A stretch of 64,000 bases of DNA from Pachysolen tannophilus NRRL Y-2460 (taxonomy: Eukaryota), in the NCBI GenBank assembly GCA_001661245.1, contig KV454013.1:1520502-1584501 (forward strand), written 5' to 3'. Below, in pieces: positions 56,774-58,168 of the stretch; positions within the stretch are counted from its first letter, which is position 1, and each line of letters starts with the position of its first letter. A program made the position numbers and the translations under genes. The notes beneath the pieces are model-generated. The model was given only the letters and a program-made list of their open reading frames with translations, was not told the DNA's origin and did not search any database.

Positions 56774-58168
56774 ATGAGTTATCATAGACCATATTTTAAT
56801 ACACAGCAGAGGACGTATTCAAGAAATAGTAATAATAATAATAATAATAATCATTATAATAAAAAAATTGATGTTTTTTCTAATTTGAAGCTTCCAAATA
56901 TTGCAAACTATTCAATAGAAAATTATATAGAAGGTTTCCATGAAAAGGAAAGTGAATCTTTGAGGGTTAATTCGATATTAAATCAAAATTTAGACAATTC
57001 AAAACATTATGAACAATTAATATCAAATTATTTTTCAATTTTAGAAAATAATAAATTTAAAAATAGTAGATTACTGAATAAATCGACTTTGGAATATTTA
57101 AAAAAGTCAGTTGAATGTGTTGGACTTCGGAAAAATATACTTTTCTGTATTGATGTTGAAGCATTTGAATTTAATCAAAATCAGATAACAGAAGTAGGAA
57201 TATCGATTTATGATCCAAGATTACAACAAAATGCAATTATACCATTATTGAAAACAATACATATTATAATAGAAGAATACGAATATAAAAAAAATGGTAA
57301 ATTTGTTGTTGATAATAAGGATAATTTTCTTGGAGGTGAAAGTCTTATAATGAAAGCATTAGATTCTGCAATATTAATTCAATTATTAGTAAATTATTAT
57401 TTTAAAACAATACCTGAAACTACAGATTTACAAACAACATTAGTTGGCCATAACGTACAAGGAGATCTTAAATGGTTTGAGAAAATTGGTATCAAGATGC
57501 CAGAAATTTTCGATATAATAGATACACAAAAATTATGGACTGCTACACATGGTAAAGAAGGTGGATCTTTATCAAGAATATTAAGGTATATTAAAATTCC
57601 ACATGCTTATTTGCACAATGCAGGAAATGATAGTTACTACACTTTGGTATTGGCATTGAATTTATGTGATCCATATATAAGATTATTACACGATTTGGAT
57701 GCAGGAATACCTGAACCGTCTCTGCTGCTGTCTCTGCTGCCACTGCTGCCACTGCTGCCTCCGACTCTGTCGTCGGGACAGACATCACTGTCGCTGACAG
57801 AAGATGCTGAGCTAGAGGATGAAGAAGATGATGACGATGAAGATAGTAATAGCCATAACTCATTGGGAGCAGTATCGTCACCTGAAGTTGATGGTATTAA
57901 AAATGATATTGATGGAATCCATTTGGAAACCACAGGAACAGTGAAAACAGTTGCATCAATAGCAATTGAAAATGACTATTGGAATCATAAAAGAAAAAAT
58001 TCAAATACTTCACCTAAAAAATTTGGGAAAATGACCCATGAAACAGAAAAAAAGACAAAAAGAAAGATAAAACAAAAAAATTTTGACATTGTGGACAATG
58101 TCAATGTGAAAAATGCTTCAGATGCTATTAATTTGATATTTGAACCAACCAGAAGGTTTGGTATTTGA
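56774..58168 (+). CDS. Gfd2/YDR514C-like DEDDh exonuclease-fold protein (alternative start at 56684)
   Basis: CIDVEAFE, ITEVGISIYDP, LVGHNVQGDLKW, IDTQ, LHNAGNDSYYTL. Confidence 0.85.
   Translation: MSYHRPYFNTQQRTYSRNSNNNNNNNHYNKKIDVFSNLKLPNIANYSIENYIEGFHEKESESLRVNSILNQNLDNSKHYEQLISNYFSILENNKFKNSRLLNKSTLEYLKKSVECVGLRKNILFCIDVEAFEFNQNQITEVGISIYDPRLQQNAIIPLLKTIHIIIEEYEYKKNGKFVVDNKDNFLGGESLIMKALDSAILIQLLVNYYFKTIPETTDLQTTLVGHNVQGDLKWFEKIGIKMPEIFDIIDTQKLWTATHGKEGGSLSRILRYIKIPHAYLHNAGNDSYYTLVLALNLCDPYIRLLHDLDAGIPEPSLLLSLLPLLPLLPPTLSSGQTSLSLTEDAELEDEEDDDDEDSNSHNSLGAVSSPEVDGIKNDIDGIHLETTGTVKTVASIAIENDYWNHKRKNSNTSPKKFGKMTHETEKKTKRKIKQKNFDIVDNVNVKNASDAINLIFEPTRRFGI

Follow-up and report, generated by a model that had tools for sequence, protein, structure and literature searches.

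We analysed a stretch of 64,000 nucleotides (hereafter the window) in which a first-pass annotation, made from the letters alone, had noticed twelve in-frame CTG codons crowded into 25 codons of a single gene and had proposed that CUG is not read as leucine and most likely is read as alanine. The window is very probably nuclear DNA of Pachysolen tannophilus or of an extremely close relative (family Pachysolenaceae, order Alaninales), with CUG translated as alanine according to NCBI table 26. The two halves of this statement have different foundations. That CUG is not leucine is supported by the window itself, independently of the identity of the organism, while "alanine" rests on that identity and would hold because the DNA belongs to P. 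tannophilus (or to a relative all but identical to it) and already carries a table 26 annotation. The assignment is already known, in the literature and in the NCBI code tables since 2016, and its recognition here is a rediscovery, in which a sense-codon reassignment was correctly detected from 64 kb of raw sequence without tools. The window holds 83 CTG codons, about ten of them deeply alignable, which is enough to reject leucine and not enough to split alanine from serine.

The CTG run and the gene that carries it

The gene and the elements within it are as follows.

56774..58168, plus strand: DEDDh_C (Pfam PF21762) exonuclease-fold gene; the deposited model of 464 amino acids (aa) starts from the second in-frame ATG
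57722..57796, plus strand: run of 12 CTG codons, read under table 26 as AAASAAPAAPAAPPTASSGQTSASA; disordered hinge linking the DEDDh domain to an acidic tail
57725..57759, plus strand: tandem repeat with a 9-bp unit, CTGCTGCCA, in 3.9 copies with 92% matches (Tandem Repeats Finder); source of 8 of the 12 CTG codons

Codon-by-codon reading confirmed the twelve CTG codons, which occupy positions 1-3, 5, 6, 8, 9, 11, 12, 16, 23 and 25 of the run. The remaining codons are TCT (4), CCA (7 and 10), CCT (13), CCG (14), ACT (15), TCG (17, 18 and 24), GGA (19), CAG (20), ACA (21) and TCA (22). Across the 28 open reading frames (ORFs) of the window, CTG accounts for 83 of 14,662 codons (5.7 per 1000), and at this background rate a stretch of 25 codons should contain about 0.14. 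The twelve are not independent events, because the 9-bp tandem repeat supplies eight of them. Read as alanine (table 26) the run makes a plausible linker, and so it does when read as serine (Ser/Pro-rich, table 12).

The ORF in the frame of the run extends from 56684 to 58168 (plus strand) and encodes 494 aa from its first ATG. The DEDDh_C domain covers aa 152-326 of this ORF (E 1.4e-47); after it comes the run, and then the acidic stretch. The 494-aa form was absent from NCBI/UniRef/nr under tables 1, 12 and 26, while the 464-aa form (56774-58165, from the second ATG) is present under table 26; since the longer form is missing under all three codes alike, the deposited model merely starts later. 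The protein is putatively Gfd2-like.

A frameshift or an assembly error could have placed the run in the wrong frame, the true reading being GCT GCT GTC TCT GCT GCC and so on, that is, alanine by standard codons. The +1 frame of the run does give an Ala/Ser/Thr-rich stretch, and a similar 33-nt repeat at a second genomic locus has flanks open in the GCT frame. However, the DEDDh domain and the run share a single uninterrupted frame, which remains open for about 120 codons past the run; in DNA of 30.6% GC, this leaves the CTG frame in no doubt. All sampled words of the gene are present in five DNA-type sequencing runs from two studies, with no RNA run listed among those containing them, and the deposited 464-aa protein is in the CTG frame. 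We give this explanation next to no chance.

A likeness of the hinge and acidic tail to archaeal ribosomal protein P1 was rejected as compositional (NCBIfam E 0.0097, 16 bits against a cutoff of 100). The sub-threshold match spans 57722-57870 (aa 347-396 under table 26) and corresponds to the P1 C-terminus. The window's own P0 protein (38689-39630) has a similar C-terminal end, with an Ala-rich hinge and an acidic tail.

CTG sites compared with homologs

Homologs of the following CTG-bearing genes, and of several smaller ones, were used to examine what faces CTG elsewhere.

42895..46404, minus strand: RPA135, second-largest subunit of RNA polymerase I; CTG at aa 89, 809 and 816, in variable non-Leu columns
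30061..31641, minus strand: MFS (Yhk8-like) transporter; CTG at aa 47, 397 and 468, where an 84% identical paralog has A, Q and V
26400..29180, minus strand: CRT10-family protein; CTG at aa 235, 238, 293, 621 and 906
46740..47549, plus strand: Thg1; CTG at aa 113

The individual CTG sites quoted by the first-pass annotation were found where it had placed them, in Thg1 (47076), Rpa135 (43980 and 43959), B22 (10952) and fRMsr (29415), and likewise in the KH protein, the wall protein and the second GCR1_C paralog. The Saccharomyces cerevisiae strings that it had given for comparison are also genuine: WPKEW and LDEDGLP occur in PDB chain 4c2m_B and WAKFF in 5xox_A.

CTG codons were marked as X, and the residues facing them were examined in alignments with PDB structures and in deep homolog alignments. 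Leucine stood opposite CTG at none of 10 sites, in seven proteins, in the PDB alignments, where the facing residues included the following.

Rpa135 aa 89: M, M, T
Rpa135 aa 809: E, E, R
Rpa135 aa 816: E, A, D
Thg1 aa 113: S, R, R, A (four homologs)
Epimerase-like protein aa 164: R, N
Fet3-like protein aa 307: A
fRMsr aa 15: S, P
Tel2 aa 493: Y, T
B22 aa 53: H, Q, N

When the two GCR1_C paralogs of the window were aligned with each other, CTG faced S, R, V and V. The deep alignments comprised 119 homologs for Rpa135, 119 for the MFS transporter and the top 60 of 150 listed for CRT10 (fast MAFFT mode). CRT10 aa 238 was dropped, its column being mostly gaps, and aa 235 and 293 were poorly aligned. 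The main residues in the other columns, with their counts, were as follows.

Rpa135 aa 89 (119 homologs): S 36, A 30, M 24
Rpa135 aa 809 (119 homologs): S 38, E 35, T 16, A 11
Rpa135 aa 816 (119 homologs): D 56, A 25, S 10
MFS aa 47 (119 homologs): S 38, T 20
MFS aa 397 (119 homologs): P 85, S 18, A 8
MFS aa 468 (119 homologs): I 37, V 18, T 18, L 15, M 13
CRT10 aa 621 (best 60 of 150 listed): S 12, K 9, E 8
CRT10 aa 906 (best 60 of 150 listed): L 27, I 6, F 5

A 20-class logistic model was trained on 2,300 unambiguous codon sites of the three deep alignments (cross-validated accuracy 0.70) and applied to the 10 CTG columns in which at least half of the sequences have a residue. Leucine makes up at most 8% of eight of these columns, 13% of another and 47% of the last, against an average of 66% in the columns of the genome's own non-CTG Leu codons in the same alignments. 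Summed over the 10 sites, the prior-free log-likelihood was highest for S; with S set to 0, A stood at -0.9, E at -1.9 and T at -2.3 nats, and leucine at about -9.5 nats (obtained from per-site A-versus-L values, which sum to 8.57). CUG is not leucine, and this part of the earlier proposal is upheld by the window's own genes.

The alternative is the standard code, in which CTG would merely be rare at 30.6% GC and the run would be a Leu-rich stretch of low complexity. CTG does represent only 5.8% of the six-box "Leu" codons, as low as the GC content predicts; one CTG falls in the column with 47% Leu, a second in one of hydrophobic character (I/V/T/L/M), and a few coiled-coil contexts could accept leucine. 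These points are outweighed by the distance of about 9.5 nats, by the absence of leucine from the PDB-aligned sites, and by database records that match none of six table 1 translations (see below). On average, the surroundings of CTG (-0.99) are also more hydrophilic than the surroundings of Leu codons (-0.43; p = 1.7e-4). The CTG value is below those of all classes tested (Leu, Ala, Ser and Thr, -0.24 to -0.69) and shows only the placement of CTG in hydrophilic or disordered, unconstrained sequence, not its amino acid. We consider the standard code to have a negligible probability here.

Database translations and placement of the genome

Six ORFs were looked up by exact sequence in NCBI/UniRef/nr, namely Thg1, fRMsr, the glucose-6-phosphate-epimerase-like protein, B22/LYR, Tel2 and the DEDDh ORF from 56774. 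The table 26 translation was found for all six, on one contig of 1,751,653 bp, and in the same look-ups the table 1 translation was found for none (0/6) and the table 12 translation for none (0/6). In their database versions, Rpa135 and the MFS transporter have alanine at all six of their CTG sites.

P. tannophilus itself has been studied directly. As reported by Muhlhausen et al. (2016, Genome Res, PMC4937558), P. tannophilus NRRL Y-2460 has a tRNA(CAG) with the alanine determinants G3:U70 and A73, and liquid chromatography-tandem mass spectrometry of this strain showed alanine at 97.2% of 907 fully supported CUG positions. The same report counts 16,824 CUG codons in 5,288 predicted genes, and 80% of the genes contain the codon. 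The window agrees with these figures, with 3.0 CTG per ORF (83/28) against 3.2 published and at least one CTG in 23 of 28 ORFs (82%). The proposal that CUG is most likely alanine is sustained by the six matching table 26 records, by the P. tannophilus paralog described next and by the proof reported for that species in PMC4937558.

The best non-self match of the MFS transporter is ODV95280.1 (PACTADRAFT_43126) of P. tannophilus NRRL Y-2460, 84% identical and located on a different contig; the next match is 64% identical. ODV95280.1 is a paralog in the same or a very close genome. The species name is based on this paralog and on the self-matches, not on an identical record that bears the name. 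In the NCBI taxonomy Pachysolen, Nakazawaea and Peterozyma form the family Pachysolenaceae in the order Alaninales, and Krassowski et al. (2018, PMC5951914) report one CUG-Ala clade. With its 84% MFS paralog in P. tannophilus and its six table 26 matches out of six, the organism falls within that clade. The first-pass annotation had added that the system was known in the Ala clade and would be new only for a genome outside it; this was correct, and the genome, being inside, makes no claim to novelty.

The RPA135 phylogeny that had been suggested as a check was informative in part. Among the matches listed, no relative of Rpa135 exceeds 85% identity. A FastTree reconstruction from 120 listed of 2769 matches was poorly resolved. 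It excluded the window copy from the Serinales cluster and from the Candida boidinii/Ogataea cluster, with weak support, as would be seen for an isolated lineage. Its pairing with one sequence (support 0.62) inside a Komagataella/Ascoidea assemblage is uninformative on order. No sequence named as Nakazawaea or Peterozyma appeared among the results of any homolog search; the closer relatives represented by CRT10 P0245 (60% identical) and MFS P0126 (64%) and P0127 (62%) may be candidate species of these genera.

Alanine or serine

The serious competitor of alanine is serine, as in the CUG-Ser1 and CUG-Ser2 yeasts (table 12 type), under which the run would be a plausible Ser/Pro-rich linker. Several observations weigh against alanine at this point. 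From the window data alone, alanine and serine cannot be separated. The classifier ranks serine first over 10 variable sites, with alanine 0.9 nats behind; none of the 10 scored columns exceeds 25% Ala or 38% Ser, and none places CTG at a conserved alanine. Serine outnumbers alanine at six of nine counted CTG columns, with alanine ahead at two and a tie at one. In the ortholog alignment proposed as a check, leucine was rejected, but the 0.9 nats did not separate alanine from serine.

The sequence context is no help to alanine either. Within three residues of CTG (run excluded), Ala is represented x1.14, Ser x1.29, Gln x1.88 and Pro x1.27. Around true Ala codons the values are Ala x1.82 and Ser x1.15, and around true Ser codons Ala x1.15 and Ser x1.26. 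The neighbour composition of CTG resembles that of Ser codons and is no argument for alanine, contrary to the earlier suggestion that Ala/Gln/Pro contexts favoured alanine over serine. Arguments of this kind need the backing of the tRNA or of genome-wide statistics before they can be relied on. As for the tRNA, ARAGORN found no tRNA genes in the 64-kb window, and the decoding tRNA is not among its features. The database match, for its part, is a depositor's choice of translation, an annotation rather than a measurement. According to PMC4937558, Pachysolen CUG codons lie mainly at conserved alanine positions; this placement is invisible at the 10 sites of the window, which we read as small-sample noise but count as a result against alanine.

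A last contrary point concerns leucine. CRT10 aa 906 (window position 26465) is the sole CTG found in a Leu-dominated column (47% Leu), and the closest CRT10 homolog, P0245, 60% identical, also has L there. The earlier statement that no CTG falls at a clearly invariant leucine is true in the strict sense only, because 27 of 60 homologs have Leu at this site. Either a recent Leu-to-Ala change has occurred at aa 906, or a conserved CTG has been translated as Leu in the relative P0245.

Against serine stands, in the first place, the record: table 12 matches none of the six database entries and table 26 matches all six, and the nearest named relative, P. tannophilus, reads CUG as alanine by mass spectrometry as reported in PMC4937558. 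The excess of serine at unconstrained columns is the background expectation, because Ser codons are about twice as frequent as Ala codons in the window (1335 versus 666). Rpa135 lies outside the Serinales cluster, though with weak support.

Conserved-serine columns provide a further comparison. No CTG of the window falls in such a column. As a positive control, of 56 conserved-Ser columns in Rpa135, 11 hold Leu in the Logan-derived sequence P0069, 9 in P0078 and 5 in P0080; in the MFS alignment, the Logan-derived sequences P0201 and P0202 each have Leu at 6 of 25 such columns. These five look like proteins of CUG-Ser yeasts translated with the standard code. Wrongly translated yeast proteins are present in public collections and can be recognised by their Leu at conserved-Ser columns. 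Leucine at conserved-Ala columns in close relatives was found at most once or twice per sequence, and no mistranslated CUG-Ala relative was revealed. On balance we regard serine as very improbable, with a small residual chance, and alanine as the amino acid that CUG most probably encodes in this DNA.

Likeness to known codes

The closest known system is that of P. tannophilus (table 26), shared through the six identical public translations and the 84% MFS paralog of NRRL Y-2460. CTG density, the share of CTG-bearing genes and the avoidance of Leu columns also agree with the published genome, and no difference from it could be demonstrated, except that the CTG codons of the window stand at variable rather than conserved-Ala columns. 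Nakazawaea and Peterozyma, also CUG-Ala yeasts, belong to the same family. CUG-Ser1 (Candida and Debaryomyces, among others; table 12) and CUG-Ser2 (Ascoidea, Saccharomycopsis) have likewise taken the codon from leucine and keep CTG off conserved Leu columns. They differ from the window in the amino acid and in the origin of the tRNA; the window has no CTG at conserved-Ser columns, and table 12 fits none of its six records.

Origin of the present CTG codons

In the mechanism that we propose, CUG would be decoded as alanine by a tRNA with the anticodon CAG and the identity elements G3:U70 and A73, as known from the literature. The ancestral Leu-tRNA(CAG) would have been lost and the old CUG codons purged. 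Judging from the window data, the present CTG codons would then be mostly new, created by point mutation where change is tolerated, often in disordered sequence; the tRNA-loss-driven model, as presented in PMC4937558, also predicts that they are new. The residues facing CTG in paralogs and orthologs are often one base change away from it (Q, V, P, M and L), so that a de novo origin fits. Examples are Q and V (MFS paralog of P. tannophilus), P (85 of 119 MFS homologs), M (Rpa135 chains of S. cerevisiae and Schizosaccharomyces pombe) and L (CRT10 aa 906). The 12-CTG run would be a recent expansion of the 9-bp microsatellite CTGCTGCCA, and would encode an Ala/Pro-rich hinge after the DEDDh domain.

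When contigs from three sequencing runs were aligned to 57400-58100, the only match was a different contig, which carries the 33-nt GCT/CTG repeat of the second locus in the same genome. This repeat differs by 3 mismatches from window positions 57724-57756, and its flanks, as noted, leave the GCT frame (Ala) open.

Under table 26, (GCT)n/(CTG)n sequences encode alanine in two of three frames. With CUG read as alanine, such repeats could change frame, by a shift or by copying, with the Ala-rich linker kept, and we raise the speculative and rather unlikely idea that the 12-CTG run arose in this way after the reassignment, as a frame-shifted relative of ordinary GCT-type alanine repeats. If this held in general, CTG-rich tandem repeats would offer the reassigned codon a way back into genes that is specific to this lineage.

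Other features of the window

52543..53262, plus strand: Ser/Thr/Ala-rich secreted or wall-type repeat protein, with four repeats of about 40 aa

In this protein CTG occupies the same position in all four repeats (52672, 52807, 52930 and 53029) and was therefore copied with the repeat; one more CTG lies at 53125.

The protein of 1081 aa encoded at 1616-4861 (minus strand) has a RING-like Cys/His stretch and eight CTG codons. It had no Pfam match at E <= 1e-5 in our scan, while its database entry lists a precomputed PF15411. A word-based homolog search with this RING/PH protein returned only itself, and it is apparently a fast-evolving, lineage-restricted protein.

The D-amino-acid-oxidase-type ORF at 34701-35375 (plus strand) matches only positions 129-352 of the 353 in the Pfam DAO profile. 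It is without the N-terminal flavin adenine dinucleotide (FAD)-binding part, and this points to an exon further upstream, another start or truncation of the gene.

Two runs of N, at 50934-51306 (373 bases) and 60986-61279 (294 bases), lie between genes and are assembly gaps or masked stretches.

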